A DNA stretch of 64,000 nt from Lingula anatina (lineage: Eukaryota; Animalia; Brachiopoda): NCBI GenBank assembly GCA_051362555.1, contig CM120641.1, forward strand, positions 35,470,401 through 35,534,400, written 5' to 3'. Positions within the stretch are counted from its first letter, which is position 1. Every line of letters begins with the position of its first letter. The position numbers and the translations under genes are program-made. Below are positions 7,541 to 59,210 of this stretch, one piece after another. A model generated the notes under the pieces. That model was not told the DNA's origin. It saw only the letters and a list, made by a program, of their open reading frames with translations, and ran no database searches.

Positions 7541-8575
7541 GGGCAAGATGTCAGAGTAAGATGGATCAACCTCTCTGGTTACTTTGAAGGCTGATCTTCA
7601 GCTCAAAGTTGTAGTTGCATATGACTGACTGGGAGCTTTTGTTAGGGGTGCATGTTCTTGATCTCATCTACTAGTAGACAGCACTTCAAAAGAGCAGACC
7701 CAAGAAAACCAGAATAAAAATTTCTTTAGAAATTAGTAGCAGTACCCGATTCAGTAAAAATGTCTTTTCCTCTTTTCCTCTTGTCCTGAAAATGTTATTG
7801 GTTATGAAGAACTTTCTGAGATATATATCCACAATCAAAGAGATACATTGTCAAAACAACAGCACTGAAAACAGAACTTCCATCATTGGTGGAAATAGTG
7901 ATCATGTCAACTTACAGCCACTGCAACCCATCAAATTGTAAACTCTATATGAACTATATTGTTATGTTATCTGAAGGAATGTTAGCTGGAACAACTGGTA
8001 TTTTATAAAAATATTTTGTCTTACTAGATACAGTATACATAGTGGTCCACATCATGAGACATCGAAAGTACTTTACTGTAAGTCAAAGCATATTGTAGGA
8101 AACAAGGGCTGTGAGGATAAGGGATTGATACTTTTTTTATAACTTTTTTTTAATCACTGAAAAAACAATGTTCATGTGGTGAGTTGCATTGATCAGGTTC
8201 TATTAACTTGAAGATAAAGATCATGTAAAAAGTACATCTTCTTAATGAAGAAATGTTATTTAATTTTAATGCATGGCTACATTTGCTGTAAATAAGGTTT
8301 TCTCATGTACCTGAGATTTTGTAATGCCATAAAATGTGATAGACTGTGAAAATAAAGATGTTGGTGGGATTTATTTTGTTTAATTATTAAGCTTTATTCA
8401 GTGAGCATAAAAGCATAGTAAATACAGTAGTGTATATCTTTATCTTCCACGTTGTTATTTAACCCCACAAGTTTTTTAACCCCTCAAACGCAAATACATA
8501 TTGTAACTGTTGAACAATTGTTTGTTTAAAAATAGAAAAGAAAGGAAAAAAACAATGAGATATAATTATATATAT

Positions 8576-9590
8576 AGACTTGACATTTAATATGGAATAT
8601 TTTTTCCAAATCATAATTCATTAATTTTTTTCCCTATTTTGCTGACTGATAAATAAAAATAAGGATTAAAATTGCGTTTTAATAACTTTTAAATCTCTTT
8701 GATGTCATTGTGACATCAGTTCATTAATTGAATTTGCCAGTGAAGCAAACAAAAATGCATTATGTATTCTAAGTCATACAAAAACGATTGAAAGCGATAT
8801 TTTGGAACTCCATATTTTCCAAATTATTGTCTTTAAAAGAGTTTCACGTCCCACAAAAGACCCTCATGTCGTTGTCTAGTCACAGCAGAGGTCGCTGTTA
8901 CGCCTGACCTCATCTGGCTGCTACCAGAGCTTTCAAGTGGCAAGGCATTTCTTGGGATAGGCTTTTAGAGTTTAATCTGGAATAAAATTCCAGGCAGCGG
9001 CCAAAACTTGCCCAATTTGGTTCAGTTTTGTTGTAGGATATGCAGGCCGTTGATTTGGCAAGTAATGACCTACCTTCGTATTGTCTACGTGGTTAAAAAA
9101 TGGCGATTTTGATGACCAAGGTAGCTGCTCATTCCCTTGGTTCTGCAAGTTATCTGCTATTAAAAGTGCTCTGCTGAGAACCAGCAATCTCATCGTGTAA
9201 CCTAAAATTGTTCCTAAGGTGCCCCCTATCAAATGAAAGTTAAGTGGTTCCCAGATTATTCCTTTATTTGATCTGCTTCAGGTTTTCGTTAAGGACTACC
9301 ATTGGTGTTTTGGCACCAATGTGGTATCCACTCCAAATACTGACGCTGTCAATGACCCTAGCGGCACATGCTTCGTCGTAAGCCTCTTCAGGATGTCTGT
9401 AAACTCTGTTTTGACCAGTTGAGCAGTACAAGTACATGTAAAATCTGACCTCAATAAAGAAAGCCACGTTGCTTCAGTGTTCTACCCAGAAAGGATCATG
9501 GTCCCCAATCCATTAGAGAAACAAACGACGCTGTTTTGCTGTTTACAGTGGCCTCCTCAGAGGTCGTCTGGTATCCTAACCTGCTGAAAC
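8576..9590 (-). mobile_element. Tc1/mariner relic, 3' half including the right TIR
   Basis: The TIR agacttgacatttaatatggaatat follows TATATA. Decayed DDE-region peptides SVSIWSGYHIGAKTPMVVLNENL and LPWSSKSPFFNHVDN match Tc1 VMVWG and WPSxSPDLNPIEN. Homologous to 24515-25980. Confidence 0.85.
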
Positions 9591-10016: not shown

Positions 10017-11667
10017 ACCAAATCTTGTCCTTTGCATAAAAAGCCCAGACCCCCTGTTAATAACGCCCTGGCTGGGCCCATTCTTTAAGGTGTCTTTGCA
10101 TTGTTTACAGCATAATGGGCAAGTTAATTGACCAAGTTAATTGGCCAAACTGCCAGTTTGTTTGTATGGCATGTGCAGGGGATGTCATAGATATATATGA
10201 AGGCCCTCACTTAAATAAGCTAATTTCGTAATGTAAGTTATACTTATTATACCAGAGATGAGGTAGGGGAGTATTTTCACTTTTGCTGATAAAACATGAA
10301 TGAAACTTAAAAAAAAACATTGTATTGTATCTCTTTAAATAGCCACTCCTTGCTATAATAATAGTAATCTGAAAATGGAATTATATCCTCAAACATTACG
10401 CAATCAAAGTTACTTCGAAACAGGACAAACTAAGCATAGTAAATTAATAATAAATGATTTTATAATTTCATCATCTATTTTTTTTTTTTGTTACTTTTCG
10501 GTTATGACACAATTACTGAATTGTTATTAATGTACTTTATACCCATTTTAGAATTAATTTTAGCATTACAAGCTTCACCTCAATGTTCAACTTATGAATA
10601 ATATTACTACTTTTTCCTGTGGTTATTACGGGTGTTTTTTCATATATGTTGGTGTTTCTGTAATTCCAGATAATTACTTGTAATCAAGAAGTATTGTTCA
10701 CGATTCAAAGTTAATTTGCTGGACAGACACATTCAGTAGACAATGCATGATTTAAACTACTCACACGTCCTACTAAGCGTAAAGTGACGAAGTGCTGTGA
10801 CGAAATATTTAATTAATGCATGTAGCAATCAAAGTGATTAGTGCTGAAGTATAAGATAAACTTCTACCAAAACGCTAAACCGTCATACCCACACTAAGAT
10901 CAACAACTGTGCTTTAATGTCTCTCCTTATTTTGAAAATCGTTATTTCAGCAACCATGTACACTTAAATAATCAAGTTCTGATGAAACTGACCATCTTTT
11001 TTTTCCTCAAAAGTGCTAACCGTCACACTGACACAAAGATCAACAACTGTGCTTTAATGTCTCTCCTTACTTGAAAATCGTTATTTCTGGGGCCATATAC
11101 ACTTAAACATTCTGGTTCTATGAAACTGACCATCTTCTTTTTCAAAATCGCTTATGACATTTAAAAGAGTGCTGAGTTCCATCTAACACTTCTACCAGTA
11201 TTATTGTTACTGTTGATATACCACTAGTAACCATAGTAACCAGTAATATTTGTGCTGAACATACGCGTAACAGAAAATAATTAAATATGCATTTAAAATA
11301 TAAATATAAATTTAGTAATATCTCAAATGTTTCAAAGCCTTTTGAGCAGTTGCATACAAGCAGGTATGAAGCTATTACACTTAATTCAGTTAGATTTCAG
11401 GTGTTATCCATTGGAAGCGGTCCAATAATTATATATTCTGCGGCAAGCTATCAACAGGAAATCCATGAATAAAATTATTAGAATTTTCCCTAATAGATCA
11501 TACGGTATATCTTTAGACTCGTCATTAACCAGCACGCCTAACATAGTAAGTCTTAGAAATCTCCCTTTATGAACAAAAACAAAAAATGGAAAAAAAATCT
11601 GTAATAACGCACAGATATTTACAAAATAACTCAGCTGGATAAACAATGATTTCTTCAAATTCGTCTT

Positions 11668-13123
11668 CTAATTAAAATTATTGAATTTCAATAATTTGAA
11701 CATTGCCTTTCTGATGTTTGTATTCAGCAAACCGTAGATTAAAGGGTTGACTGCTGAGCTAAGCAAAACTAATTCCGAACTAATATTTAAAAGAGTAACA
11801 AAAAGATTCCTGTCGTTTAAAGACTGCTCCAGGTATGGCCCTATTATTCCACTAGGAAGAATCAGCACAATTAGTGTGCATACTGTAAGGGCTGTCATTT
11901 TAGCAAGTTTTGCCTCCTTTTTGTTCGAGGTTGAGACAATCGTTGGAATTTCGGCTACAGGTCTTTTCTTTGCTGGATCTTCATTGATGATTTCGCTACC
12001 TAGGTGCTCGATTTGATCAACAGATTGTTCATGTACAATTTGTGTGTCTTTGAATTCACTATGCACTTTAGTTGCGCATGCCGCGTTGCCTGTTGACGTG
12101 GAAGGTATCGGTTCTGTTGGGTTTTCAGCTAGCGGTTGCTTTAATCTTTGTCCAATATTACCATCTCGAGTAGTCGAGCTGGAAACGTCATTTGCTTGCC
12201 CTCCGTCCGGTCTCGTGTTTGTAGGCGACATTTGACCGTCAGCTTCCATGAGTTGATTCTGTCGCATGTCGCACGGAGCACACGATGTTGACGCTAAAGC
12301 TCCTGCACTCTGACTTACCCTCCGTGGACGTACATATACATGTAGAGCCCGGGGGATCCTCAGGGTATTTTTATGCAAAGTATTAACTTCAGCTCTGTTA
12401 TTAGTGACCAATCTGTCATTTATTCTTCTTTTATTAATTTGGACATGACGGAAAATCGCAACGTACAGTCCAAAGATTACCAAAAGACAAATTGGTACGT
12501 GTGGCAGTATCACGTATTTCGCGAATTCCCTTTGAATATCCTGTGGTCTGCATTCTTTGTCTGGGGACCAATTGTGCCAGCCAAACAATGGGGGGAGATG
12601 TATGGCAATACCGTAGAACCAAGTCAGTATTATGGCTGCTTTGTGTCTTTCCCGGCTAAATATTTGTTGGTACCGAGTGTTTCGACAAATTTTTATGTAT
12701 CTCTCAAATGCAATGAGTAACTGATGAAAGAAAGATACTGGGAGGAAACACCCGCCCATGAAAAGCTTTATGAGACAAAATAGTTTTTCATGCCTAAGAT
12801 GCTGCAGATTCGACACCATATCAATGAGATACGTTGAAAAAAATATTGAAGGGTGCGAACAGGAGTCCGGTGAGCAGATCAACAATCGCAAGGCTGAATA
12901 TTGCATAATTAACCTGCACTTGTAATTCTTTGAACTTGAGAAAAGTAGCGATAAAAAGACTGTTACCGAAAATGGTTGCACCAGATAATATGATTTCCAC
13001 AACAATGAGAACAGCGCAAGTGCCATGTTGGATTTCGCAATAACGCTTCTCCAGGTTAGTTCCATTTAAAATAGAACCTGCAGACATCGCTAGAACAGTC
13101 TCATTTCTCGGTGCAGTGCTCAT
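11668..13123 (-). pseudogene. Intronless orphan class A GPCR, copy 1; +1 frameshift in an A7 run near 12837-12843 (pseudogene or assembly error)
   Basis: ORF 12821-13123 carries the N-terminus to TM2 (GN, LAIVD) and ORF 11668-13065 carries TM3-TM7 (ERY, NPLIY) in another frame. Removing one A gives an uninterrupted 484 aa protein colinear with copy 2. Confidence 0.85.
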
Positions 13124-13508
13124 TTTGAGATAATTTTCCGCCGTGATATCAGTTCAATGGTATACATATACAGTGTAAATGTATGTGGATGTCCCTGCTT
13201 CTGGCACTTTCTTAACGTCGTGACATTTTATATCATTTTCACAACCAATAAGCTCAAAACCAAACCTTGTGATTATGGAAACTTAGCACGTAGACGTCCT
13301 TACCCTGGCCTGCAAAGCAATAAACACCGTAGCCTATACAGCAATTATTACCATGGCCTGTACAGCAATAATGCGTCTCTTGTTATGATTTAATGATATG
13401 GTCACACTGATTTAAGTTTATGGATGACATTCGCATTTCCATGACAGTAAGGTTGAGGTATATGGTGGCCTTAAAGTGGATCTACAGTATTTTCAGTGAT
13501 ACCACGCC

Positions 13509-14051: not shown

Positions 14052-14329
14052 TAACTCAGTTACAGCTACTCGTTGTCCACTGTATGCGACGCACAAGAGC
14101 AAATTATGTCTCGGCCGCGCCTCCATTTAATTACCCTCTTGTATGTTGCAGTGGATGACTCGTGTTGTAACTAGTACTTGTTTGTATGATACAGCGATGA
14201 AGCAGAGGGGAACCGATTCTTTAATATTCCCAAAAATTACAATCGTATTCAGATTTCCAAAGTCTCATTTATACATCTTACTTTCAGCTGTTACATGTTT
14301 AATACTTCAAGAGCGTATAATGACCTCTC

Positions 14330-15318
14330 CACAGGTTGTCTATGTGGTTCTAATCTGGCATTCTTGATGGCCAAGGTAACTGCTCATTCCCTTGGTTGTG
14401 CGACTTAAAGTACTCTGTGTGAACCGGAATTTTCACCGTGCAACCTACCTACGGTGCAAGTACTGATTCAGTCAGTGACTTAAGTCATTCTAGACGAGGT
14501 ACGCGCTTCGTCTTAGGCCTTTCCGGGATGTCTGAAAACTGTACTTTGACATCTTTAGTGGTACAGGTGAAATCTGAGATCTATAAAGAAGACCACGGGG
14601 TTTTATTGTCCTGTCCAGAAAAGGCCATGGCCCCCATTTCATTAGAGAAACAGACGACGATTTTTTTTCTTTTAGAGTTGCTTCCTCAGGGGTCGCCTGG
14701 TATTCTAACCTGCTGAAACCAGTCTGGTGTTCGTTAAGGGCCTTTAAAAACACGTTCTGGTGGCAATTTGCCGCTCATTCTGAACGGAATGGATGGTCTT
14801 TATTTAGTTGCCGCAGAATATCCGTAAGGACAGCTAGTTCTGTATCCTGGTGGGTACATTTCGATATATATTGGGCGTCAATTGCCTCTGTGTAGGTACA
14901 TCCGTGTGGGCATAACTCTATAAAACCGTGCGGACCGTTCCGCGTGACACAATACTCTGTCTCTGGCAATATATATATATTTTTCGCGCCATTCTGGCAC
15001 AGATTAACAATGTCAGCTCATTTTAGCTTAGCCCATTTACGCACTGCAAAGCCAACCGCTTGCATGCAAAATTTCAAATTCTTTTATGCTGTAGTTGCCG
15101 ACGTTTTTTTTTGGATAGCACCATGTTTTACCAAAGCCAAGCTTTGACAAACCCAAAGGAGCACTACCCAATGAAATCACTGCATATTACGCCGTACAGC
15201 AGTGCAAAAGAAAGGGTAGTTAATTGGTAGCAGCACACCTGACTTCACACTTTCCCATTCACATATCTTATATGAGATCTGAGCATTTTAAAGAAGAACG
15301 CATTCTCACCTAGGCATG
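14330..15318 (-). mobile_element. Tc1/mariner relic, internal and 5' part
   Basis: Reverse-complement similarity to about 24555-25470, for example aaagccaagctttgac, ggagcactacccaat, acatatcttatatgagatc, cctaggcatg and tgctcattcccttgg. Confidence 0.8.
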
Positions 15319-15647: not shown

Positions 15648-18600
15648 CATACTTATACCAGAGACGAGGAATGGGGGTATTTTCACTTTTGCTGATTAAA
15701 CATGAGTGAAACCTTTTAAAAAGCCAAGACAACGTTTTTTATCCCTTTTTAATAGCCACTCCTTGCTATAATAATCGTATGCTGAAAATGGAATTATATC
15801 CACAAACACTCGCCCATTACGCAATCAAAGTTATTTCGAAACAGGACAAACTGGGCATCGCCAAATTATAATAAATGATTTTATAATTCCATCAACCTTT
15901 TAGGTTTTAACACAATTCTTGAAATGTTTTTTTTTTGGTACTTTATACCCATTTTAGAATTAAAGCAATTTTAGTATTACAAACTTCACTTCAACGTTTA
16001 ACTTTTAGATTCCTACTTTTTCCTGGTTGTTTTTTCATATATGTTAGTTTTTCTATAATTCCGGGTAATTACCTGTTATCAAGTAGTATTGTTCACGATT
16101 CAAAGTTTATTTGCTGGACAGACACATTCAGTAGACAATGCATGATTTAAACTACTTGAACGTTCTACTAAAGGTAAAGTGACGAAGTCCTGTGACGAAA
16201 CACTTAATTAATGCATGTAGCAGTCAAAGTGTTGAGTGTTTAAGATAAACTTCTACCAAAACGCTTAACCGTCACACAGACAGGAAGACCAGTAATTGTG
16301 CTTTAATATCTCTCCTAATTTGAAAATCGTTATTTTAGGAACTATGTACACTTAAACATTCTAGTTCTGATGAAACTGACCATCTTTTTTTACCTCAAAA
16401 TTGCTAACTGTCACACTGACACAAAGATCAGCAACTGTGCTTTAATGTCTCTACTAATTTGAAAATCGTATACACTTAAACATTCAAGTTCTATGAAACT
16501 GACCATCTACTTTTTCTAAATCGCTTATGACATTTAAAAGAGTGATGAAATGAGTTCCATCTAACACTTCTATTATTATTACTGTTGATATACCACTAGT
16601 AACCATAGTAACCAATAATATTTGTGCTGAACATACGAGTAACAGAATATAATTTAATATGCATTTTGTGCTAAAATATAAATTGAGTAATATCTCAGGT
16701 GTTTCAAAGCCTTTAAAGCAGTTGCATACAAGCAGGTATGAAGCTATTACACTTAATTCAGTTACATTCCAGGTGTTATCCATTGGATGCGGTCCAATAA
16801 TTATGTATTCTGCGGCAAGCTATCAACAGGAAATCTATGAATAAAATTATTAGAAATTTCCCTGAAAGATCATACGGTATATCTTTAGACTCGTCATTAA
16901 CCAGCACGCCTAACATAGTAAGTCTTAGAAATGTCCCTTTATGAACAAGAACAAAAAATGGAAAAAAAGTTCTGTAATAACCCACAGATATTTACAAAAT
17001 AACTCAAGGCCTTAGCTGGATTAACAATGATTTCTTCAAATTCGTCTTCTAATTAAAATTATTGAATTTCAATAATTTGAACATTGCCTTTCTGATGTTT
17101 GTATTCAGCAAACCGTAGATTAAAGGGTTGACTGCTGAGCTAAGCAAAATTAATTCCGAACCAATATTTAAAAGAGTAACAAAAAGATTCCTGTCGTTTA
17201 AAGACTGCTCCAGGTATGGCCCTATTATTCCACTAGGAAGAATCAGCACAATTAGTGTGCATACTGTAAGGGCTGTCATTTTAGCAAGTTTTGCCTCCTT
17301 TTTGTTCGAGGTTGAGACAATCGTTGGAATTTCGGCTACAGGTCTTTTCTTTGCTGGATCCTCATTGATGATTTCGCTACCTAGGTGCTCGATTTGATCA
17401 ACAGATTGTTCATGTACAATTTGTGTGTCTTTGAATTCATTATGCACTTTAGTTGTGCATGCCGCGTTGCCTGTTGACGTGGAAGGTATCGGTTCTGTTG
17501 GGTTTTCAGCTGGCGGTTGCTTTAATCTTTGTCCAATATTACCATCTCGAGTAGTTGAGATGGAAACGTCATTTGCTTGCCCTCCGTCCGGTCTCGTGTT
17601 TGTGGGCGACATTTGACCGTCAGCTCCCATGTGCTGTTTCTGTCGCATTTCGCACGGAGCATACGACGTTGACGCTAATGCTTCTCCCTTCTGACTCATC
17701 CTCAGCGGCTGTACATATAGAACCCGGGGGATCCTCAGGGTATTTTCATGCGGAGTATTAACTTCAGCTCGGTTATTAGTGATCATTTGGGCTTTTATTT
17801 TTCTATTATTAATTTGGACATGACGGAAAATCGCAACGTACAGTCCAAAGATTAACAAAAGACAAATTGGTACGTGTGGCAGTATCACGTATTTCGCGAA
17901 TTCCCTTTGAATGTCCTGTGGTCTGCACTCTTTGTCTGGGGACCAATTGTGCCAGCCAAACAATGGGGGGAGATGTATGGCAATACCGTAGAACCAAGTC
18001 AGTATTATGGCTGCTTTGTGTCTCTTCCGGCTAAATATTTGATGGTACCGAGTGATTCGACAAATTTTTATGTATCTCTCAAACGCAATGAGTAACTGAT
18101 GAAAGAAAGATACTGGTAGGAAACATCCGCCTATAAAAAGTTTTAAAAGACAAAAGAATTTTTCATACCTCAGATGCTGCAGATTCGACACCATATCAAT
18201 CAGATACGTCGAAACGATATTGAAGGGTGCGAACAGGAGTCCGGTGAGCAGATCAACAATCGCAAGGCTGAATATTGCATAATTAACCTGCACTTGTAAT
18301 TCTTTGCACTTGAGAAAAGTGGCGATAAAAAGACTGTTCTCGAAAATGATTGCACCAGATAATATGATTTCCACAACAATGAAAACAACGCAAGTGCCAT
18401 GTTGGATTTCGCAATAACGCTTCTCCAGGTTAGTTCCATTCAAAATAGAACCTGCAGACATCGCTAGAACAGTCTCATTGCTCGGTGCAGTGCTCATTTT
18501 GAGATTATCTTCCAACGTGATATCAGTTCAGTGGCATTCATATACAGTGTAAAAGTTTTCTGGTACGTAATTTATATTTATATAATTTTCCATTTAGATA

Positions 18601-18880
18601 AAAAAAAAAAAAATTTTAAACATCTGCTGAAAAACAACCTTGTGAAAATGGAAACTTAGCACGTATACATCCTTACCCTGGCCTGTTTGGCAATTGAGAC
18701 CCTGGCCTGTACAGCAATTAAGAGTCTCTTGTTTTGATTTTATAATATGGCCACTCTGATTTAATCTTATGGATAACATCTGCATTTCCCTGACAGTAAT
18801 GTCTTTATTGACTATAGTATTTTAGTTGTTTGTATGATACAGAGATGAAGCAAATGAGAGCTGATTCTTTAATATTCCCT
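15648..18880. repeat. Tandem segmental duplication, unit 2
   Basis: Colinear with 10238-14232. Confidence 0.9.
17049..18497 (-). CDS. Intronless orphan class A (rhodopsin-like) GPCR, copy 2, 482 aa, long third intracellular loop
   Basis: Seven hydrophobic segments, N-terminal NxT sequons, SLAIVDLL, TM3 Cys, AFERY, TM4 Trp, LPPLFGW and SAVNPLIY followed by helix 8. First ATG is at 18497; the track start at 18515 is a TTG. Confidence 0.93.
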   Translation of the reverse strand: MSTAPSNETVLAMSAGSILNGTNLEKRYCEIQHGTCVVFIVVEIILSGAIIFENSLFIATFLKCKELQVQVNYAIFSLAIVDLLTGLLFAPFNIVSTYLIDMVSNLQHLRYEKFFCLLKLFIGGCFLPVSFFHQLLIAFERYIKICRITRYHQIFSRKRHKAAIILTWFYGIAIHLPPLFGWHNWSPDKECRPQDIQREFAKYVILPHVPICLLLIFGLYVAIFRHVQINNRKIKAQMITNNRAEVNTPHENTLRIPRVLYVQPLRMSQKGEALASTSYAPCEMRQKQHMGADGQMSPTNTRPDGGQANDVSISTTRDGNIGQRLKQPPAENPTEPIPSTSTGNAACTTKVHNEFKDTQIVHEQSVDQIEHLGSEIINEDPAKKRPVAEIPTIVSTSNKKEAKLAKMTALTVCTLIVLILPSGIIGPYLEQSLNDRNLFVTLLNIGSELILLSSAVNPLIYGLLNTNIRKAMFKLLKFNNFN

Positions 18881-19899
18881 ACTCTATTGCTGTTTTTTCG
18901 CCTTTTCGCATTTGTTTCAGGGTCTCCAGAGGATGTCATCCACAAAATTAAATCGGTGTGGCCTAATCATTATATAAGATGTAGAAAGTCATCTTAAAGT
19001 TTGGTCCTGCTAATTACGATTGCAGTAAATACCCATACTATGGCATTACGTACAAACCATTCATTAACTCTTCGACAAAGCCGAGAAACCGTGCACCTGC
19101 CACCATTTCACACCTTATGACGTCGATTCCCGACTATATTTTCCAAGGCACATCACTGAAACTTTGAGAATTGATCAAGTACATTCTGAAATTTGTGTCC
19201 AGCAAATGTCATACATTTTGATGGACCTCTGTAGGATTTAATAATCGTTTTATGGATTCTTTTTTCGGGGGGTCACCCAGTACCTCTGGAAACCGTGTTC
19301 TACCAATTCTTTTCTCGAACAATCTCAGAGCCTACGCGTCCTTTGGACGGGTACTTTTCCACTATAATGTATAAAGAAACTGAATGTCAGAGTCTGAGGA
19401 CATGGTGGTTGAGCAGGCCACAGATAATTGAAAGGGGTTTATTGTGAAATTTTAAAAATGAAGTCCTTTTTAAAGTTATGTATTTGTCCTTCCTCACACG
19501 AAGACAGATGACTTTTAGCTGATTGAAAAATTTAATAGTCATGTCGAATTTCCCCTCGTTTACGGCTTGTTGAGATGAAATATTCATTTATAAAAATCGT
19601 GTTCTCCATTTCCGTTCATTTTTGAAAGAGTGTATTATATGAAGATTTTAAACTTTTTTTTACATTTTTGCGTAGCTTTGTCAAAAAGACCATTTTGAAC
19701 GGTTTAGATTGGGGCTGTCTTGTCCCTTCACGATGTCAAAATTTAAAAACTGACTGGGTAGGAGAGGATACGGGCGAAATAAAAATTTTAATGACTTATT
19801 TTAGTGTATTTTTGGATTAAATAAAGCAAATGGCCCCTTAGCCCACTTCCCCCTTCCTGCGCGGTTGACACATTGGGGATTATAATAAAGGGAACCGGA

Positions 19900-20046
19900 G
19901 AAGATCAGCATTGGTCAGAATTGTGCCGGAAGTGACGTGCAGTGGTGTTAGAAACGAAGCTGAGTGGTCATTTTAACATAGAGGTGAACGGCAGTGAAGA
20001 CGGGTTGTCGGAGGAAAAAGAAGTTTTCTAAACAACATGGTAAGAT
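19900..20046 (+). promoter_or_regulatory. CpG-enriched promoter-like segment with an ETS/CRE composite motif and an ATG|GTAAGA first-exon end
   Basis: CCGGAAGTGACGT at 19926-19938 and aacaacATG|gtaaga at 20037-20045. Confidence 0.4.
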
Positions 20047-20875
20047 AACTCTCTTTTTTTTCGCATTTTGGGCAGAGAAAACTTGTAGAAATAATAAATG
20101 CATGATATGAAAACGTGACACGGAACTTGAAGGTGCAAAATCGTGCTTAATTGGCGGTCAACTTGTTTAGAAATAAATGCTGCGTCGACCGCCAGCGCGA
20201 CAAAAAGCGTAAAGGGGAAATAATTCCCGGGAGTCTATAAATCGTTGTCATGTGGAAATTTGGCATTAATATATTCCGATATGTCCATATCTAAGTATTT
20301 TTGGGGTGTATGAGCTGCAATTAGAACGAAGTTTTAGAGGTCTTGAAGGACCTTGTGAAAACAAGGAAGTAGTTCGTAACTAACAAGTGATAACCCGGTT
20401 CCTAGGACTATGATTGGAATGATAAAAAGAAAATATATGTTACTATGCTTTTATTCGCCTTTGAAATTAACTTTAAGATAATATGTTGAATTTTCATTTT
20501 CAATATTCAGATAAAAAAAATTGAAGTAAGAACAAATGATATCAAAATTATAACCATTGGCGCGTTCGTATTCAGTGAGGTGTATTTACTGCTTAAGGCC
20601 CAAATTTCCGTCTTATATATTTTTGGTAAAAGGGATTAAAGTAAGTATTCATCTCAAAATATCTCTACTTTGATACAAAATTTTGCTGAATTAAACAAAA
20701 TAAGTCGAAATAAAGAGGATATTACGGATATTGCACTTTGAGTTTTGATTATGGCAATCGACCTACTAAGGTTGAATAATGGAATTTGTGTCTTATGCTT
20801 GTTTTTCTATTGCACATAATTTGAGTGTTGTCGGTCCAAAAAAGAGCAGAATGATCAGTTTGCGATGAGTTCGAA

Positions 20876-21673
20876 TTAGATCGGCGTGTCTTCGTCACTG
20901 ATGGAAATGGCATCCTTGAAGCTCCGGTGATCCTCGGGTGATGGGGGTGTCCTTGGGGTCAGGTCAAGGTCATCAACTCTCCAGTCCGCATCATCGAGGC
21001 CTTTGGTGACGACATCATAGTATGCCTGCTCAGCCCGGGTGACGACGTCAAACATTGGCTGGAGGTCAACGTGAAAGAACCCGCTAAAATAGGACGTAAT
21101 TAAATGTTTATTTTCCACATACTGTTGTTACCGTTGTTTGGCGGGGGAATATACCGGTATATGAGAAAAGAATTATGAATTAAGGAGAACGAATGTTAAA
21201 TGTACTGATTATTCGAAAAGCTTCCTGGAAATATTTCAAGATGTATAATTGTCTCCAGTTCCTTTTATTCACACATACAGTAATTTTACTGCATGTTTTA
21301 TTTTTTCTTTGCGTATAACCCAATCTATTTCAGATTGGGCTGTTTAATGAATTTATCATATTCTAACTTTCTATATTAATCAAATCATGTAACAATCGTA
21401 TTTCACCTAAAAGGAGAATCCAGGTCGGCAACAATGTAGCACAGCATGCTAATTGAAATGATGGTAATAAAGGACACTACCAATTCGAAGCGGTAAGACT
21501 GGCCATCAATCATCTGGATTCCCAAGAATGCCGCCAGGCCCAAAGACTCCAAAATGATCCACCTAAAAAAGAAATTGATCATTATTGCTTTTGTCGTATT
21601 ACAAAACATTTTCTGAATCTTAAATAAATTGCTTTCGTTTTGTACATGATTACTTCTTGTAAAAATCTAGCAC

Positions 21674-21711
<38 letters not shown>

Positions 21712-24194
21712 ATCGAGAGAGAGAGACTCACTGTAAAATGTGTAGGCGAGTGTGGAAAGGCCCCATTCTATCAAAGTCCACTCCGATCAGGTCGATAACA
21801 ACTGTAATGGCCTTGTTGGTCAGCACCGTGTCCACGCGGTAAGACTTGTCCGTCATGTCTACGTTGCGCAGCCTGTCAAGCACCTCGTAAAGACTCTCTG
21901 AAAAAAAAAATTAAGTGTGAGTTGTGATATCTAAAAGGCCTACATTGCGCTTGCTAATGGAGAAATCAGTTGAAACATTTTATTTCAGGCTACTTAAGTT
22001 GTGTCCTGTTTGAACGGTTTCAGAAAAAGATTTTCTCCTCAAGAATGTTGCTGTATGTACCACTAAATGTTACATGGTCGCTAACGTTGTTTTGAATATA
22101 TCATTTATGTCTCCTCCATCTCAGTGTACCACAAACTTTTATGGTCTCATTCATAGCAAGAAAGAAGGCAATCAGGAGTATTGATTGTTGGTGATTTGGC
22201 CAAACAAGGCCGCTTTTATTATATAACCCCTCTATCCTGATCGTTTAACAATAATAACAATGTAGCAAATTGTTGCCTGTATTAAATGTTATGGCCTTAG
22301 GGATAAAAATTATATCAAATATTCAATAAGACTCATCATCCTAAAAATTATGATGCGACGAGTCAGCAAAAGTTATTATTTACCAACAATTTTGCACAAA
22401 TTTCATTTGTGGGGTTGCAAAGAGGGCCTGCACATGTGCACAATTAAGCTCTGGAGATTGTTGTCGCCATAAAATGTCGTTTGACTACGCCAAACTTTCC
22501 TTTCTTGTACCTCTTAAGGATACTTTGTCCACTATCAACTTACCTCTGATGTTTGGGGGTTTGGTGGTCAGAGTCTTATAGTAGCTCAGAGGATAATCCA
22601 TGATGTGGACCATCATATTAATGCTGGCGTCTTTCACGGACCGGATGATTTCGATCTTGTCGTGGGGTAGCAGATGAAGCTTGCCGGTCATAGCGACAAT
22701 CTGAGCCAGTAGCCCAATCTCGACCATGAACCTTGTTGTTACCTGCCCCTGCTTGCCGGCTACAACTTGGAAGATGAAGCCGAACATGATGGCGTAGACG
22801 AGACCAGAGGGTGTCAGGTAGCTACGAATGGCGTCGTTGACATTTAAATCTTGGCGGTCGACACCGATCTCGGTCCACAGAGCGTCCATCAGCCATTCGT
22901 CGAAGTACAGCATGAGTGGCGAGGCGAGGAGGCACAACACGCAGGGTGTCATAATGCGGAGAAGTTCTGTTGGCTGGTTAGGGAACTTGATCATTGTGTC
23001 CTTAACTTCGAGATCAAATGAACTCAGAAAAGGCTTGATAGAGGTGTCTGGTCGCTTTTTTAGCTCTTCTCGGAAAGCTCTCACCGCGACCTCAGCCTTA
23101 TTAACTGGCTGCCATCCTTTCATATGGTGTGTTTTAACATAAAGATACACCATAGCTGAAAATAAGACCTGCGTCATTAGTTGGAATTTAAAAGATTGTG
23201 GAATTTTAGATTTCATCTAATCGATAGTTTATGTTTGAGATCATACAATATACATGTAAGCCATAACACCTCCAGCGTCTTCGAGAGGTACACGTGTTCA
23301 AAACATTTGTCGCGAGAGGGTGACAGTGTCCCTTTATTGTGTTTGCGCGTGAATGTTTCTCTGCTTTTGTCAAATTACATTGCAAGCCAAATATTAAAAC
23401 AAAACGAAAGCGAATTATACTGAGAGATAGCTCTATTGGCTTGCTTATTATGTTTCATCATAGGAAAAATAAATGAAATTTAATTAATACGCAGAATATG
23501 TGGTGTCTTTCTCTTCAGTTATTGTATATGCTCTTAAGACTTAGAATTTTTCACAGTATTTTTCTGTATTTTTTCATGGAAGTATGAAAGCTACTGAATA
23601 TTAAAATTCAGCCTCCGTCAGCCGCTACAAATATGTGACATAATCAATTTTTTATCCATGGAATAAATGTTGAGATTAAGAGCGATGAGATATCGCAAGA
23701 TAGATACTGACTAGTGCAACGACTTTGTAAATGCAGCAAAGAAGCATATGTTTATCAAGATTTTCAAAAATATTTCTTGCATTACTGTATAAATATAATA
23801 TCATGTAAATGAATTAATAAGCAATGATTGCTTTAAAAGCATATGGACAAAACGGCCTAGCTGGCATTTATATTATTATACGCATTATACATTTGATTCT
23901 GCATAGACTTTCTAATGGATTGACAGAAAAGTATATAAACTGTATACCGAAAACAAAAGTCATGCAGTGTAGCAAAACAATCAAACATATGAGGTAGGCC
24001 TACAATATACGACATGCCATAATCGATGGTAGATTTGTTTTCTCTACTAACTTACCCAAAATTATTAAAATTATGGAAGCGAACGGAGGAATTGTTATTT
24101 CGTTAATGTCAGGGCGATCCTTTGTCTCTTTACCGGCTACCAACGCCATGTCGCTGGCAATCAGAAGTAAAGCTGTTACTACCACTCTATTCAT
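20876..24194 (-). CDS. Five-exon membrane protein, 426 aa, DUF4239/bestrophin-like
   Basis: Exons 24056-24194, 22544-23155, 21732-21897, 21407-21562 and 20876-21083 are all GT-AG, phase-compatible and total 1281 nt. The product has a signal peptide, several TM helices, and the motifs GLVYAIMFGFIFQ..E and YIVADLDSPFSGFFHVDLQP. Confidence 0.8.
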
Positions 24195-24518: not shown

Positions 24519-25976
24519 CTTGACATTTAATATGGAATATTTCAGTTTCGAAGGCATGCCTAGGTAAAAATGCGTTCTTTTTTCAAAAAACTCCGATCTC
24601 ATATAAGATATGTCAATGGAGAATTGTGTATCAGGTGTGTAGCTACCAAATAACTGAATTCCAGGTTTGTTGCACTGCTGAATTATATTATATGCAGTGA
24701 TTTAATTGGGTAGTGCTCCTTAGCGCAGGTCAAAGCTTGGCTTTGGCAAAGCATGGTTCTGTCAAAAAAGTTTCCATATGTCGGCAACTACTGCATAGAA
24801 AAATTTGAAATTTTGCATGCAAGTGGTCGGTTTTGCAATGTGTAAAATAAGCTACGCCGTGCTTTACAAATTTATTAATCTGTGGCAGAATGGCGCGAAA
24901 AATACAGACATTACCAGAGAGATAATTGCGCCGAACGAAACGGTCCGCACAGTTTTATAGAGTAATGCCCAGACTGATGTACCTACACAGAGGCTACACA
25001 CAATGTATTGAAATCTTACCACCAGGGTACAGGACCCACTGTATACTAGACGACCTCCGAGGAACCCACTGTAAACAGCAAAACATCGTTGTATGTTTCT
25101 CTAATGAACTGAGGACCTTGACCGTTTCTGGGTTGAACACTGAAACCTCGTGGCTTTCTTTATTGAGGTCATATTTCAAAGTGACTAAGATCATTAACAG
25201 CGTCAGTATATGGGGTGGATACCACATTGGTGCCAAAACACCAATGGTTGTCATCGACGAAAACCTGAACCAGATCAAATAAAGGAATAATCTGGGAACC
25301 ACCTGACTATCATTTGATAGAGGGCAACTAAGGAACAATTTTAGGTTGCACGGTGAGATTACCGGTTCACACAGAGCGCTTTTAATAGCAGATTACTTAC
25401 AGAACTAAGGGAATGAGCAGCTACCTTGGTCATCAAAATCGCCATATTTGAACCACATAGACAATATGTGGGTTGGTCATTACTCGCCCAATCAAAATGT
25501 CCGCCGATCTAAATGTCCTACAACAAAACTGGACCAAATTGGACAGATTTTGACCGATGCCTGGAATGTTATTCCAGATTGAACTCTACAAAACTATCCC
25601 AAGGAATGCCTTGCAACTTGAAAGCGCTGGTAGCAGCCAGAAGAGGTCAGGCGTAACAGCGACCGTTACTGTGACTAGACACTGACATGAGGGTCCCTTG
25701 TGGAGCGTGTAACTCTTTTACAGGTAATAATTTGGAAAATATGGGGATCCAAAATATCTCTTTTAATGGTTGTCGTATGACATACAATAAGCAATGTGTT
25801 TTTGTTTGCTACTCTGGCGAATTCCATTAAAGAACTGATGTCAAAGTGACATCAAAAAGATAATTAAAAGTTATTAAACCACTATTTTAATCCTTATTTT
25901 CATTTATCAGTCAGCAAAATAGGAAAAAACTGATGAAAAATGATTTGGAAAAAAATATTCCATATTAAATGTCAAG

Positions 25977-25980
<4 letters not shown>
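24515..25980 (+). mobile_element. Tc1/mariner element with both TIRs and a decayed transposase, embedded in (TA)n
   Basis: TIRs cagacttgacatttaatatggaatat ... atattccatattaaatgtcaagtctg. Remnant peptides SVSIWGGYHIGAKTPMVVIDENLN and WSSKSPYLNHIDNMW. TA runs of about 70 bp lie on each side. Confidence 0.92.
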
Positions 25981-26054
<74 letters not shown>

Positions 26055-28052: not shown

Positions 28053-29590
28053 TGTACTGTGTTTGGACTCTACTGTGTTTGGTGTTACACTTAACTCAAA
28101 ATGTCATCCTTTTAACTTTTTTTTTTTGAGTATATTTTGGTTCAGCTTGCTTGTGTTGATTGAACACAGTCAGTTCAATTTTATAGAAATGTAACATGCT
28201 TTACAGGTACATGTAGATCTGCCTCCTGTGGATGACCCGAAACTTGAAGATCGAGGGTGTGATATTCGGGAGATGCATTGAAAAGGGTATATACATTTCC
28301 CCAGGAATTAACTTATTAGCAGGAACTAGACTGTAATAGTATTCCATTATTTAAATGTTCAACCTTATACTTTAACAGGAAGTACACTAATGCTATGCTG
28401 TAAAAATATACATGTATGCCTTATATTGCCCTGAGCAAATAACCTGTTAAATTTTGACCCAAATGCATACACTGTAGCTGCAGTTCCTGTAACAGCTAGG
28501 TTTGTATATGCAATCACCAACATACTTATATATATTATCTCGTGTAGGACTGGAACACGATTAACTTATAGTAAGAATTACTTATTTATATGAGAGCAAT
28601 ATAGGGTTCAAGTACATGTAAGTGTGCATTTAAAGTCAAACATTTGAGAACATGAGAATTAATATTGTTAAAGTCATAAGACCTTAACATATCAAGCATT
28701 ATAACCTAGCGGAATGTAGAAGTATTTGGAGATGTTCTACCATGCAATTATGCTAAGTGGACTTAAATCTCTTTCTCCACAAGCGCTCCACAAGTCCACT
28801 CCCTTTTGTTTCGTTAAAAATTATTAATTGGTGCTGATATTAAACTGGGTGTGTCTACTGCAGGGGATTCAATTAAGTTACTCTAACAAAGGTTAATTTA
28901 TAAAGCCAGGTTATGAAGTTGCCAGCCTTTGAAAACAACAGTGTACCACAAAAATCTGACTCCCCTAAAAGGTGACTCCCCAGCCAGATTTTCATTATGT
29001 CACATAAAATACAATATTTGACACTAGGGAATCCACTGGCTCAATTTGCAATATCAGCCTCTTTCAGGTTGAATGTCAACTGGAATTAGGTGGAAGTTCT
29101 TTATGTGTTCATAATTTTTTATTGCAAATTGAATAGAATTTGAAAATTAGCTGTTTGATTGTTCTTCATGGTTGGACATAAATGGAGGGAATATATCTAA
29201 TCTGGTATATAAGCTAAAATAGAGAGATGTACAGATCAAAAAGTCTGAGACGAGCCATAAAAAAAAACAGGAGTATAGTATAGTATAGTATAGTATAGTA
29301 TAGTAACTACTGAAGAGACTGATACACTTCAGTGAGCACAGTTGGAATGATGCTGTTAACCCAGTGAAGTATATTGAATTATTTGAAAGTAGGTTAAGAA
29401 ACAGATCTTCTACTACTCGAGTATAAAGTGTTTTAGGCATAATTGATAAAACCCCAGTGAAGACGAAAACATTTCCATTCCCTAAATTACTTATGGAGTT
29501 GCCTTTTTTTTCAGATTTCTTTCCATGAACTGAGACATTCAATCTTATTGATTAAGTTCCTGCTCACCAGGCACAGCTAGACCACACTGC

Positions 29591-31919
29591 ATGATGGCAC
29601 TGGGAATCCACTGGCCATCAGCCGCTTATGCAGCCACTTCTTTTGGTGCAGGCATGATAAACCAGGTCTTTTCATTCTACCTGGTTAAGTTCTTCCTGAA
29701 TAGGTATCAAGTCTCCGAGAGCTGGTTCAACACAGCGCAAGCTATCTTCATGGTATGGAATGCCATCAATGATCCACTCTTTGGGTACATCCAAGACCGT
29801 GCGGAATGGCTGAGGAAGCGGAGATATGCAGTCCTCTTTGGAGGGCCATTCTACTGCTTGGCTTTTTTGGTACCCTGGTTTCCATGGGGTAATTACGAAT
29901 CTGGGTCTTGGCTGTGTGGCGCACATTTGCTGTTCAGTCTCTGTCTCTTTGATACTTTATTTACATTTGTACTTTTGGCCCAATGTGCAATTTTCACAGA
30001 GATGTCAGGAAGGCATGATGACCGTCTTCGCCTTATAAGATATGCAAAAATAGCATCTGTTCTGAACTCTGGAACATTGTTTGCTACAAACATGGTATCA
30101 GATAATCTGAATGACATTCCAAGTTTTCAGAAGTTTGCAGTGGTTTTGGCATGCTTGGCGATGGTATGTTTCTATATCACAGGCACATATGCACACACAG
30201 AGTATGAACTACGGCAAGCGGTTGCTGGGAAGCCAGAGAAGTCCCGCCCCGTCAGCCAGTACTCATTTATGCGACAAGCATGGCAGTTACTGACTCAGAA
30301 GAATTTTCTTTGCTTTGTTGCCATGAATTTCTGCCAGGAGTTTCACAGAGCCTTCATGAATGGCTTCACTGCTATCATCACTGATACACTGTTCTCACCA
30401 GAGGTTTTACCCACATTCCACAAAAGTGTATTTTACAGTATGAGAAATGTGCTCACTCCGGTAAGTTGACCTTATATAATAGGCATACAATGTGTATTAC
30501 ACTTTTATACGGCTAAAATTTTATTTGATTAGAAATATATCAACAATTTTCCCTTAATCACCAACTGGAGGTTATAATTTCTGTTGAGAATTAAGTAACA
30601 ATCAGTAAACATAATTTTGAGGTCTCAATTTCTATTTTGAACTGTTTTGAATAAAATTATCCTGTAAAAGAGGTTAGGCAATACGAGATCGTAATATGAT
30701 AGCCTATAATTTACTAGTATCTATTAATCTATAATAATTATTATCATTTATTTGTTTATTTATTTATTTTTTTTTTATTTTTGAAATGGTTGCACCCCTT
30801 GGTCACTGAAGAACATTTTGGATATTCATTCCATATAACTTGCAAGTATTATTAGAAAACATATGTAATTTCATGACACTGATACTGGCTGAAAGCTGAA
30901 TTTTTCCTCTCTGTTGAAGTCATCATGTTTTTAGCAAGATTTATTTCCAGTTGCTCGTGGTATCTGGTACCTTCCTGGTCAGTAAGTATGGAGCCTTCGC
31001 CATGATCAGGAGCAACTTCATTATCAAAATCTTCTCATCTGTGATCATGCTTCTTATTGGAAGAAACCAACCCCTGCTGTTGATACTCTTCATGACAGTG
31101 GACTTGTGAGTTTGAATGCATGACTGTTAGATCTCTCTCTCTCTCTCTCTCTCAGTAATACAAGGATAATTTGAGTACTTTTGAGCAAGTACTAATTAAT
31201 CTTACAATTTTTTGATATTCAGGCATGACCCCCCCCCCCCAAAAAAGGGGGGAATAACATTGTAATTTTATCAGTAAAATGGTTTACTTTCAGCTGTGCC
31301 ACGAATGCAGCATTTGCGCTGTCCAACATTCCTCTGTCAGATATTGCAGATGCTGACAAGAAATTATATTCAAGACCGTAAGTGTTAAAAATTAAAAATT
31401 GTTTTTCTTAATTTAAATCAATCAACACCTTGAAAGTAGTGGACAGATGATATAAATTTGGTTTCACCAAACTTTCTAAAAAAATGAAAGAAAAAAAAAT
31501 AAAAGAATGAGAAAGAAGAATGAAAGAAAGAAGAAGAAAAAAAAATCAAGCAAGTGCAGGTGTAGCAAGCAGACCCTTTTTATACAATATCATAAAAATA
31601 ATTTCAAATTCATTCCAGGCATCCTATTTCTACATCTGTGTATGGGACCAATGCTCTGGTTGTCAAACCAGCCATTTCTGTGTCCCCCATGATAGTAGTG
31701 ACCATACTTAACAGGTACGGCTATGAGCAATACAAACTTGGTCAACTTGCGGATGGCCTGTTGCTGGACAGTTTACAGGGAACCATGTTTTATTTGCTGT
31801 GCTTTATTCCCCTGGTTGTAGGGTCTATACAGCTGGCGATATGGTCACAGTTTACTCTGAGGAGCAGCCACAAAGTTTCCCATGAAGATACAGACACTGA
31901 GAGGGTCATGTACTCCTAG
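29591..31919 (+). CDS. MFSD13A: MFS transporter MFSD13A/TMEM180-like, 469 aa, four coding exons
   Basis: Exons 29591-30460, 30951-31105, 31294-31377 and 31619-31919 total 1410 nt. Motifs include WNAINDPLFG, FLVPWFPW, LCLFDTLFTFVLL and GTNALVVKPA. Confidence 0.88.
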
Positions 31920-33338: not shown

Positions 33339-33578
33339 TACAAATATTAATTCTGGCTAGTGTGTCAGGTCAGCACTGTCCCTTCATACAAATATAAATT
33401 CTGGCTAGTGTGTCAGGTCAGCACTGTCCCTTCATACAAATATTAATTCTGGCTAGTGTGTCAGGTCAGCACTGTCCCTTCATACAAATATAAATTCTGG
33501 CTAGTGTGTCAGGTCAGCACTGTCCCTTCATACAAATATTAATTCTGGCTAGTGTGTCAGGTCAGCACTGTCCCTTCA
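33339..33578. repeat. 48 bp x 5 tandem repeat overlapping the NUP85 stop codon
   Basis: tacaaatat(t/a)aattctggctagtgtgtcaggtcagcactgtcccttca at 33339, 33387, 33435, 33483 and 33531. Confidence 0.97.
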
Positions 33579-36500
33579 TGTACTATAGCCCGGGCAAGGT
33601 TCCTAGTCAGTGCCAGTTTGATCAAACTCGTCTTTTCCAACTCTGCATCAGAAAACCCCTAAATAAAAAGGATAATATAAGTAAATACAAGTAATAATGC
33701 ATAAAATATTTACAAAATGAGAAGAACTAAATGGTGAATTAATTTGAGATTCAAAGCATGTTCTCGAAATAAATCCATTGAGAGTGATATCAATTCATCC
33801 ACACCACAACATTTTCAAGGTGAGAAAACTCTGCATGCTGTTTTTAAGAAATCACATTATGGACCTTTTTGTTTCTCGATGCATTACTGCAGGTCTCGAA
33901 TGCTCACCTTGTGATCACCCATTAGTTGGTCTGTTTTCTCTTCTACTTCCAATTTTTCAGCCAAACTTAACTCTTCCAAGCAGTGCATTAATTCATAGGT
34001 CTGTTGACTAGTGAAGACAACCTGAATATACAAATTATTGCATCAATAGGAGGACACTTTTTTACATATAGGGCACAGACCACTTGCACAATACAGGTAT
34101 GAGTAAGCGAATAAATAAATAAAATAAATAATAACATCTTTTTAAAAATACAGCATCACTTTCATCAAACAAATATTTCAAAAGAATTTTTAAATATATT
34201 CTTTTAATAAGTGAAGTAGAAACTATATCCAACATTAGCATTACCTCGTCTGCTTCTAACAGTGGCAATGCATCAGTGAGGAGTGTCAGCCAAAATCTAG
34301 AAAATAAGATTTCAATACCAAAGACTTGAGTTGTGACTCATAGGTGGGAATACATTAGCAAGGGTGAAAGTTGTAAAAACTGAAATTCCTGAAAACATAG
34401 CTTGCAATGCCTCATTACAATTAGACCACATGAAAAAAAACTTCATGAAGACTGAAAATCCTGAAATCGGGCATAATCCTGAAAACTTTCACCCATGCAT
34501 TAGTAATTAAAAATGCTAATATAAATTACAATTTCTTAACCTATTTTCCTTTGTTTTTTTTTTCATTTGCCAATTCATTTGAAATATAAACCAGTTGCAT
34601 TTTTTAATTGTGACGACAGGAATCGTACAGAAAGGTTCGTCTACTATCTTACTTTTTTGGTGCAAGTCTTGCAGTCAGTAGAGACAGCAGGAGTGAAGTT
34701 GCTGCTTCAAAGTCCCCATCTTCATATAACTTGTGAAATTCTCGATATTTTCCTGTAGTTATAGTTTTAGATTATACAGTGTAAGGAGTGAATTTCACAA
34801 TAGTTATCAGATTAAAAATCTGTGACATATGTAACAACTAATTTCATTAAAACATTTATTTCAATAACTAACTGTTACAATAATAATAATGCAATGGAAA
34901 AACAAAGCCTTGAGAATGCCAAAACAATTTCATTTTTGGTTCATGTTATTTACTTTTTTAAAAACAAATTCTTAAAATATTTAAAATACTTCTAAATTAA
35001 TTTGTTTCACTTTGGAATCTGTCCTCTTAATAAGAAAGATATGAACTTTACCAAGGAATGTTAGTCTGTCACTTAAGAGCATGGCTTGTCCCAGGTTATC
35101 TAGAAGGTCAAGGTTACTGAAGTCGCCTGTTGCCCTGTACCTGGTGAGAAACCTGAAAATTCACATAATTAAAGAGAAGTGTTAAATCGTCACCCGATTG
35201 CAAAGCAAAATTAATCCCATGTAAAACTTTGGCATTTAAATGCTCAGTATTTTATGTCGAGTCCAAACCAGATTCGTAGAATACCTGCACAGATTCGATG
35301 CACATCAAACAGATTTTATTCATTATTTCTTAGAAGGCTTCAAGTAGTTAGTAACTGAAGTAGCTTTAATCACATATGGTGTATTGATATAGAAATGTGA
35401 TACAAAATGAAATACCAAAAAAAAAAAAAAAAAAATGTATACACACGTAAAAACAAAATAATGACGACATTCCAGTGCAATAGTATAATGATCATGGTAT
35501 TAACTATAACGCAATTAATGATTCTCAACAAATTGACATCCCATTCAACAACTCCGAGTAACTTGTTGTCAAGATTAAAATACAGGCTTACTGTTCAGCA
35601 AGGTAGGTGGCAAAAGTGACATCCTTGGACTTGAGGCACCAAGACAAGGCTGATCCCAGTCTGTCATTGTGCAGTGCCTTCATTCCCATCACTTTACAAA
35701 TACTGTTAGCTAAAACATAAAAACAAAAGAAGTTGAAATACTGTTTTAACCAATGTTTTATTTCATTATGTTTAATGTAAGTGTGGATAATATGTGCCTA
35801 AAGTCCAGGATTTTTGTGTTAAGTCTCAAGGAGGTTTAGCAGAGTTAAAGATAATACAGTTACTGAAAATTAGTTTGGCATGCTTTAACTTTGCTACCTC
35901 TTTGATTTCATGTGTGATATTCTCTCTATTTAACAACATTAATATTTAATCCATATCAGTAAATTTCTTACTCATCAGTTACATCATGCTTTTCCAAAAA
36001 CAAAACTGTTCTTTGTTCATTTGTGTATGCTGGATATGAATTACAGCAGTTTGACCATTTCATTTCAGAGGTGTATTTAGTTTTTTTATGTAACACACAG
36101 CTGTTTTATTTTTTTTCTTAACATCAAAGAAAAACTTGCGTGAAATAATTTAAACAATTTAAATCTTTCAACACAGAAGAACACCAATAAAGTGTGAAAA
36201 CCTCTGCATTACATTAATGATGTTACTATACCTTGGTCATGCATGTCCCTTTGTTCACATATACGAAGTACTTTATGAGCTTTCCTTTCTGAACTAAGTG
36301 GAATATGTTCAATGTACTGCTCTAAATATTGCCTGAAATTAATTAATTTATTCAATCAAAGAATTTTAAAAGATCAAAGAAATTTAATCAAATATTATAT
36401 ATATATATATAAAGGTCAAAGGTCAAATAACTTATGTAAGTCAACAGACTGAACAAAACACAAAGCTTGGTTTATAAACTTTAAGTTAGCAACGAATGGG

Positions 36501-42361: not shown

Positions 42362-42422
42362 TTTCATTAGTAATCTTTCAGGTCTTCTTGCCACAAAAGA
42401 TCGTATCATGTGACTGATTAAA
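42362..42422. promoter_or_regulatory. Very short divergent intergenic region between NUP85 and CRYM
   Basis: There are 61 bp between the opposed ATGs. E-box TCATGTGAC lies at 42406-42414 and YY1-like AAAATGGC overlaps both start codons. Confidence 0.7.
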
Positions 42423-46214
<3,792 letters not shown>

Positions 46215-59117: not shown

Positions 59118-59210
59118 TATAATCTGGTCATAATCAAATATCATATGGATTATAATCTGGTCATAATCAAACATCTAGGTCACAATCTGGTCATGATCAA
59201 ATATCCATGG
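59118..59210. repeat. Three degenerate 30-33 bp copies spanning the stop codon of the Gly-rich gene
   Basis: aatctggtcat(a/g)atcaaa at about 59121, 59154 and 59184. Confidence 0.85.

Follow-up and report, generated by a model that had tools for sequence, protein, structure and literature searches.

Within a 64,000-nucleotide (nt) stretch of the Lingula anatina genome (contig CM120641.1, positions 35,470,401 to 35,534,400; hereafter the window), we identified a predicted five-exon gene on the minus strand (window positions 24194 to 20876) that belongs to PF14023, a family now named Bestrophin-like and formerly DUF4239. With reasonable though not high confidence, we read this gene as encoding a protein with a likely bestrophin fold, which likely forms a pentameric channel that is not gated by a calcium clasp and has likely been inherited since the ancestor of protostomes and deuterostomes. 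Its animal relatives constitute a second bestrophin-fold lineage in marine invertebrates, which is real and apparently undescribed. Pfam already ties PF14023 to bestrophins, and the animal proteins sit uncharacterised in RefSeq; we found no paper on the animal family in searches whose coverage stopped short of subscription journals. The accessible parts of PMC7535936 (text and four supplements) and PMC4729200 (text only; its supplements might bear on the question) make no mention of DUF4239.

The joined exons span 1281 nt and encode 426 amino acids (aa) followed by a stop codon, with the frame open throughout. Exon 1 (24194-24056, aa 1-46) contains the start codon, a signal-peptide-like stretch, a short outer linker and the first part of an N-terminal transmembrane (TM) helix, TM0; it ends in a GTAAGT donor, and TM0 aligns with the Lingula proteins P0002 and P0003 over the junction with exon 2. 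Exon 2 (23155-22544, aa 47-250) supplies the end of TM0, a cytosolic linker, TM1, the putatively pore-lining TM2 and the first half of the cytosolic domain; it matches PF14023 (E 2.2e-4) and is 51% identical to Lingula P0001. The second half of the cytosolic domain lies in exon 3 (21897-21732, aa 251-305; 49-64% against Lingula paralogues by tblastn). Exon 4 (21562-21407, aa 306-357) encodes a TM3-TM4 hairpin with a DLDSPF motif at its end (21409-21426), matches PF14023 on the frame 21406-21666 (E 1.4e-5) and reaches 65-75% against the Lingula paralogues by tblastn, while exon 5 (21083-20876, aa 358-426; tblastn E 2e-8 against P0002) provides a GFF motif, the last cytosolic helix, an acidic tail and the stop codon. 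All five exons are on the minus strand.

The four introns (900, 646, 169 and 323 nt) all have GT-AG borders, pyrimidine-rich acceptors and phases of 1, 1, 2 and 2, and their GC content of 30-35% compares with 41-55% in the exons. Because a splice combination test found 132 combinations of junctions that also leave the frame open, the exon borders do not follow from an open frame alone. We picked the borders by splice consensus and afterwards checked them against relatives: they are gap-free at all four junctions relative to RefSeq proteins from Lingula, bivalves and a starfish, and tblastn with relatives matches exons 2-5 in order. The splice junctions are backed by homology, not by RNA, and on that footing the original prediction of an intact five-exon, 426-aa open reading frame is borne out. 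The protein contains all three motifs GLVYAIMFGF, EIGLL and DLDSPF. Hydropathy reveals a signal-like N-terminal stretch, a helix at about residues 28-55 and a late pair at about 301-355, in agreement with the signal peptide (called by hydropathy only), N-terminal TM segment and late TM pair proposed earlier.

We scanned the window gene against Pfam as single-exon frames, two of which matched different parts of the PF14023 profile at 21.3 and 25.2 bits, each below the gathering cut-off of 32 bits. The full-length Lingula relatives P0001, P0002 and P0003 all score above this cut-off (75.2, 79.8 and 46.5 bits). PF01062, the family of animal bestrophins, gave no match on the window pieces and P0001 at E up to 1, or on the other relatives at E up to 0.01, and PF25539 (Bestrophin_2) was listed for none of 20 other proteins scanned, with the Escherichia coli YneE control at 331 bits. 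The proposed assignment to DUF4239/PF14023 rather than PF01062 thus holds, and so does the view that this is not a standard animal bestrophin, as the window pieces have no PF01062 match and the 426-aa protein no RFP motif. Rows for MbnP and PEP_mutase on window frames fell below cut-off.

Closest to the model are three Lingula paralogues at 46-53% identity, P0002 having 49% over 373 aa; the Lingula anatina relatives LOC106160646, LOC106167610 and LOC106174549 are uncharacterised in RefSeq/GenBank. Identity drops to 28-40% in other phyla and 20-25% in prokaryotic PF14023 members. The window protein was not itself among the matches of homologue searches, and the 64-kb window holds no second family member. 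One Lingula paralogue, searched against 1.84 billion representatives, matched 238 proteins at E <=0.001, the best 150 of which were listed; the 30 of these that we looked up comprised 19 named animals (molluscs, a nemertean, Owenia, hemichordates and echinoderms), the green alga Cymbomonas and 10 without an organism name. A profile search gave 41 matches, and the 17 named to organism were echinoderms, hemichordates, molluscs or a nemertean. Named relatives thus occur in at least six phyla, with brachiopods, molluscs, nemerteans and an annelid on the lophotrochozoan side and hemichordates and echinoderms among Ambulacraria. Among these named matches there was no cnidarian, sponge, chordate, ecdysozoan, choanoflagellate or fungus, which is not a statement of absence. 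Structural look-alike clusters in the Atlas are mainly haptophytes, diatoms and cercozoans. On the prokaryotic side, P0100 (24% identity) lies in a Poseidoniales archaeal genome, and PF14023 occurred in 2 of 121 Thermoplasmatota genomes as against 0 of 14 controls. On plasmids, the archaeal protein had no match and P0211 had four, two of which we took as outgroup. Separately, the gene for a YneE-type bestrophin on a plasmid overlaps a carbonic anhydrase gene at the latter's end (L013:1-1005).

We modeled the fold on P0002, using a 95-row alignment, and obtained a predicted local distance difference test score (pLDDT) of 84 and a predicted template modelling (pTM) score of 0.77. In Foldseek, all 17 rows shown were for Klebsiella bestrophin or its mutants (best E 3e-4, probability 1.0; template modelling score by target about 0.6 for most rows). 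VIA-align over 48,161 chains ranked bestrophins in places 1-6 (Z 15.3-12.5; bestrhodopsin, KpBest, VCCN1, BEST1 and BEST2), with the next, unrelated row at 9.1. The P0002 model has the bestrophin protomer fold of four membrane helices plus a cytosolic helical bundle. The bestrophin-like structure first proposed for this gene is upheld by these rankings, and the model of its relative suggests that the window protein likely has the same fold. Bacterial Ion_trans (PF00520) clusters in the Atlas also align to the family, outside the Ion_trans domain, at template modelling scores of 0.57-0.65, which is below the naming threshold; this may point to fusions of a voltage-sensor-like part with a bestrophin-like core.

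We built a tree (LG+C20) from 52 rows and 310 columns, leaving out L005, L008 and the fragments. It contains 30 animal, 14 protist-like and 8 prokaryote or prokaryote-like rows, and bacterial PF14023 is thinly sampled (2 canonical rows); apart from Cymbomonas, Poseidoniales and two plasmid proteins from proteobacteria, we assigned the labels protist-like and prokaryote-like by inference. All 30 animal rows group together (97/91); within this group the window protein falls with the Lingula paralogues (100/100), Ambulacraria are one clade (97/92) and lophotrochozoans minus Owenia are another (98/93). In a second tree with 13 long or redundant rows dropped, animal monophyly was recovered at 95/95 with weaker inner structure. 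The gene fragments offer a further view of its history. Unnamed fragments end near the position of the window gene's intron 2, and 17 of the 34 late fragments begin with R-W at the position of intron 3 (8 begin further on, 6 read through and 3 are non-animal), while the late fragments examined lack intron 4. These breakpoints fit old shared introns, the fragment taxa being unnamed. The animal family is likely to date back to the protostome-deuterostome split or beyond.

The gene had been proposed to be either a domesticated horizontal transfer or a patchily retained ancient gene. Ancient, patchy retention stands, and the lineage-specific bacterial transfer does not: lophotrochozoan and ambulacrarian orthologues form one broadly species-like clade, and the nearest non-animal tree rows are protist-like. 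An ancient transfer with a microbial eukaryote as donor and vertical inheritance followed by losses are, in our view, about equally likely, and the same transfer-or-loss dilemma has been stated, in the accessible text of PMC4729200, for other microbe-like animal genes. In the first case, a marine alga or other protist would have passed the gene once to the bilaterian stem, complete with TM0 and an acidic N-terminus, and chordates and ecdysozoans would later have lost it. This is a serious candidate that we nonetheless stop short of calling probable. Animals nest among the 14 protist-like rows (96/87, 96/92), with the prokaryote-like rows outside; the only named protist-like row is the alga Cymbomonas, the Atlas look-alikes point to similar organisms, and no cnidarian, sponge, choanoflagellate or fungus appears among the named matches. 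Moreover, a hydrophobic helix upstream of the core, equivalent to TM0, occurs in 22 of 26 animal proteins, in 7 of 10 scored protist-like proteins (one of the 7 may be TM1, and 2 more were left unscored) and in 0 of 4 prokaryote-like ones. However, 13 of the 14 protist-like rows come without an organism name, so that choanoflagellates or other relatives of animals could be among them; the animals have no single donor clade as sister group; and the gene is evidently prone to loss.

Vertical descent of an ancient eukaryotic gene, with losses in fungi, non-bilaterians, chordates and ecdysozoans, is just as credible. The eukaryote-like rows stand apart from the prokaryote-like ones (96/92; 100/100 in the reduced tree), the family is broadly spread over algal and protist groups, and loss within Bilateria seems needed anyway; on the other hand, many independent losses are required, and no non-bilaterian opisthokont was named among the matches. 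Direct transfer from a prokaryote, ancient or confined to this lineage, is improbable: an approximately unbiased test does not reject a tree that groups the animals with the 8 rows of prokaryote or prokaryote-like proteins (p 0.186) and a Poseidoniales protein is among the matches, but the best trees leave prokaryotes outside, prokaryote-like proteins have no TM0, and its recent, lineage-specific form is excluded because orthologues occur in six phyla and intron positions are shared.

The N-terminal extension, at first suspected to be novel, turned out to occur throughout the animal family and in protist-like relatives too, and by sequence comparison is a trait of the eukaryotic subfamily. Glu-Pro repeats precede TM0 in many relatives, and 6 of 26 animal proteins have a second, signal-like stretch. 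In protist-like P0132, an EF-hand pair is inserted in the cytosolic domain, which fits a gated channel. Other protist-like PF14023 proteins carry fusions to YHYH or tubulin-tyrosine-ligase-like domains (P0047 and P0112; P0071 and P0104).

The DLDSPF motif of the window protein is followed by SGFF. Residues P162, G164, A168, G172, F173, W307, G359 and F361 of TM2 and the TM3-TM4 region are invariant in 25 of 25 animal rows, and no acidic cluster that could form a calcium clasp follows the PF motif in any of these rows. As described in the accessible part of PMC8496536, bestrophins are C5 pentamers with four membrane helices per protomer; animal bestrophins have a neck of I76/F80/F84 and a calcium clasp at E300-D304, and KpBest is a Na+ channel with no calcium site and a neck of I62/I66/F70. 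E. coli YneE matches KpBest in register. We used HHalign to compare the family profile with a set of nine YneE-type proteins, and obtained a weak end-to-end match that pairs L165, I169 and F173 on TM2 (22776-22802, minus strand) with the neck, DLDSPF with LEDPF, and the TM2 GF motif with its counterpart. The score of 32.8 was equalled by none of 40 block shuffles; against YneE alone the comparison was not significant (probability 0.1%). L165, I169 and F173 are thus the putative equivalents of KpBest I62, I66 and F70. Across the 25 animal rows, the first neck position is L, M or F, the third is F and the middle one is never F. Since the clasp is absent and the middle neck residue is never F, gating by the animal calcium clasp is unlikely and anion selectivity is not to be assumed. 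The anion channel suggested in the original prediction is therefore not established: the putative L-I-F neck resembles the I-I-F of Na+-selective KpBest, and we lean to a pore that may be weakly selective or Na+-permeable rather than a strict Cl- channel.

In our model, the signal peptide and TM0 would place a short N-terminus outside the cell, which in relatives is long, acidic and rich in Glu-Pro. The four-helix bestrophin core would follow in its usual orientation, with five TM2 helices lining a central pore that the hydrophobic neck L165/I169/F173 would close, and with the cytosolic helical bundle forming a vestibule. Gating would probably act through the N-terminal additions, by analogy with plant VCCN1, which has no calcium motif and is gated via its N-terminal extension according to the available text of PMC9076864. 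A fuller scenario, in which an alga or protist passed the gene to the bilaterian stem, lophotrochozoans and ambulacrarians retained and duplicated it, chordates and ecdysozoans lost it, and its channel is gated without calcium via TM0 and an acidic ectodomain, is unlikely to hold in all its parts. We also judge it unlikely that the bestrophin fold is kept by a protein that, instead of being a Na+/Cl- channel, passes bicarbonate or small organic anions or serves as a non-conducting membrane scaffold. Algal bestrophin-like proteins of a different Pfam family are tied to HCO3- movement in the accessible portions of PMC6708349 and PMC11142338, many carriers are shelled or calcifying, and a family III coenzyme A-transferase gene directly follows the PF14023 gene in both prokaryotic loci scanned downstream (archaeal L001:3992-5962 and metagenomic L008:2001-4016). 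Yet nemerteans and acorn worms carry the family too, two loci offer little to build on, gene neighbours in prokaryotes are not necessarily a guide to the animal clade, and the residues at the neck positions are conserved as in gated channels.

Transcription was assessed by aligning eight same-species RNA runs, 6-30% of each of which was read, to the locus. Four runs (X1, X2, X3 and X9) gave trace depth (<=3.5x) on exon-bearing bins and four gave nothing on exons. With no splice joint reaching the 3-read listing threshold, RNA sequencing did not confirm the junctions. In run X3, exons 4 and 5 carry reads whose strand is that of a minus-strand transcript, and the intron separating these exons has none; X1 and X3 also hold a few read pairs in the opposite orientation. 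Most RNA reads at the locus fall in repeats at about 19884-20400 and 22103-22505, the latter a non-coding dispersed repeat within intron 2 where reads are 90-99% alike with loose ends at the repeat borders. Many reads at 19884-20400 show T>C differences on one strand (X1 and X2), which could be adenosine-to-inosine editing or genomic copies elsewhere. Oyster orthologues are present as full-length proteins on 1.6-2 kb Logan contigs, which suggests that the orthologue there is spliced and expressed.

Several of our observations weigh against an ancient, expressed bestrophin-fold channel. The fold was tested on a relative rather than on the window protein, exon 2 of which gave an unusable model when folded alone (pLDDT 38). 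The structural Z scores of 12-15 are near the tool's warning level for helical bundles, at root-mean-square deviations (rmsd) of 3.8-13.9 Å and 7-14% identity, and searches of solved structures gave no sequence match (0 matches in one, 4 chance matches in a second). The profile match to the YneE set is weak, with a probability of 15-17% and a best shuffle that reached 31.0, and the middle neck residue varies among the 25 animal rows (I 11, T 9, V 4, L 1). Owenia falls outside the other lophotrochozoans, and bootstrap support for the ambulacrarian clade falls to 75% in the reduced tree. Finally, expression is at trace level only, and our literature searches turned up no PF14023 protein with measured transport.

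The window is otherwise ordinary animal DNA (GC about 36%), in which the gene lies between two rhodopsin-family G-protein-coupled receptor (GPCR) genes and an MFS transporter. The GPCR genes lie in a 3.2-kb tandem duplication (10247-13453 and 15653-18802, 87% identity); in the copy at 11668-13153 the N-terminal part is in a different frame from the rest, so this copy may be frameshifted. The MFS_2 transporter gene (29552-31919, plus strand) is presumably MFSD13A/TMEM180-like. Three exon-like frames without a Pfam match resemble, in our estimation, Nup85 (36721-37128, minus strand), mu-crystallin/ornithine cyclodeaminase (42414-42740, plus strand) and an ALK/LTK-type glycine-rich domain (59180-60618, minus strand). 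Dispersed repeat copies at 8560-9590, 14318-15318 and 24555-25995 are 72-87% alike, with decayed frames that we take to be Tc1/mariner-like, and tandem arrays at 1721-2458 and 33339-33579 have units of about 107 bp and 96 bp.

Animal bestrophins have been treated as a single family of Ca2+-activated Cl- channels. The lineage described here would add a second of the same fold that lacks the clasp and has one more membrane helix. It occurs in at least six marine phyla, which include laboratory and farmed species (sea urchin, oyster and abalone). It offers a first animal handle on PF14023, for which we found no functional study in the literature searched, a natural experiment on the part that the neck plays in selectivity, and a clean example in which to weigh transfer against loss at the base of Bilateria.

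Compared with known systems, the animal proteins share with PF14023 at large the hidden Markov model match over the core, the TM2 motif G-x-x-Y-A-x-x-x-G-F and the late motif D-x-D-x-P-F-x-G, but add a signal-like stretch, an acidic outer linker, TM0 and spliceosomal introns. KpBest and E. coli YneE (PF25539) have the same fold as the P0002 model (Z 14.6, rmsd 3.8 Å over 244 residues), the I-I-F neck of KpBest resembles the putative L-I-F, and the calcium clasp is absent in both, as far as the accessible part of PMC8496536 describes it; they differ in their separate Pfam family, about 9-14% identity, and lack of TM0 or an outer N-terminus. Animal BEST1-4 (PF01062) share the fold as well (Z 12.5-13.5), whereas animal PF14023 proteins have no PF01062 match, no RFP and no E300-D304 clasp, and have I, T or V rather than F at the middle neck position. 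Plant VCCN1 combines the same fold (Z 13.9) with the absence of a calcium motif (PMC9076864, accessible text), but it is a thylakoid channel whose N-terminal helices are amphipathic and charged, in place of the signal peptide and extra TM helix predicted here.
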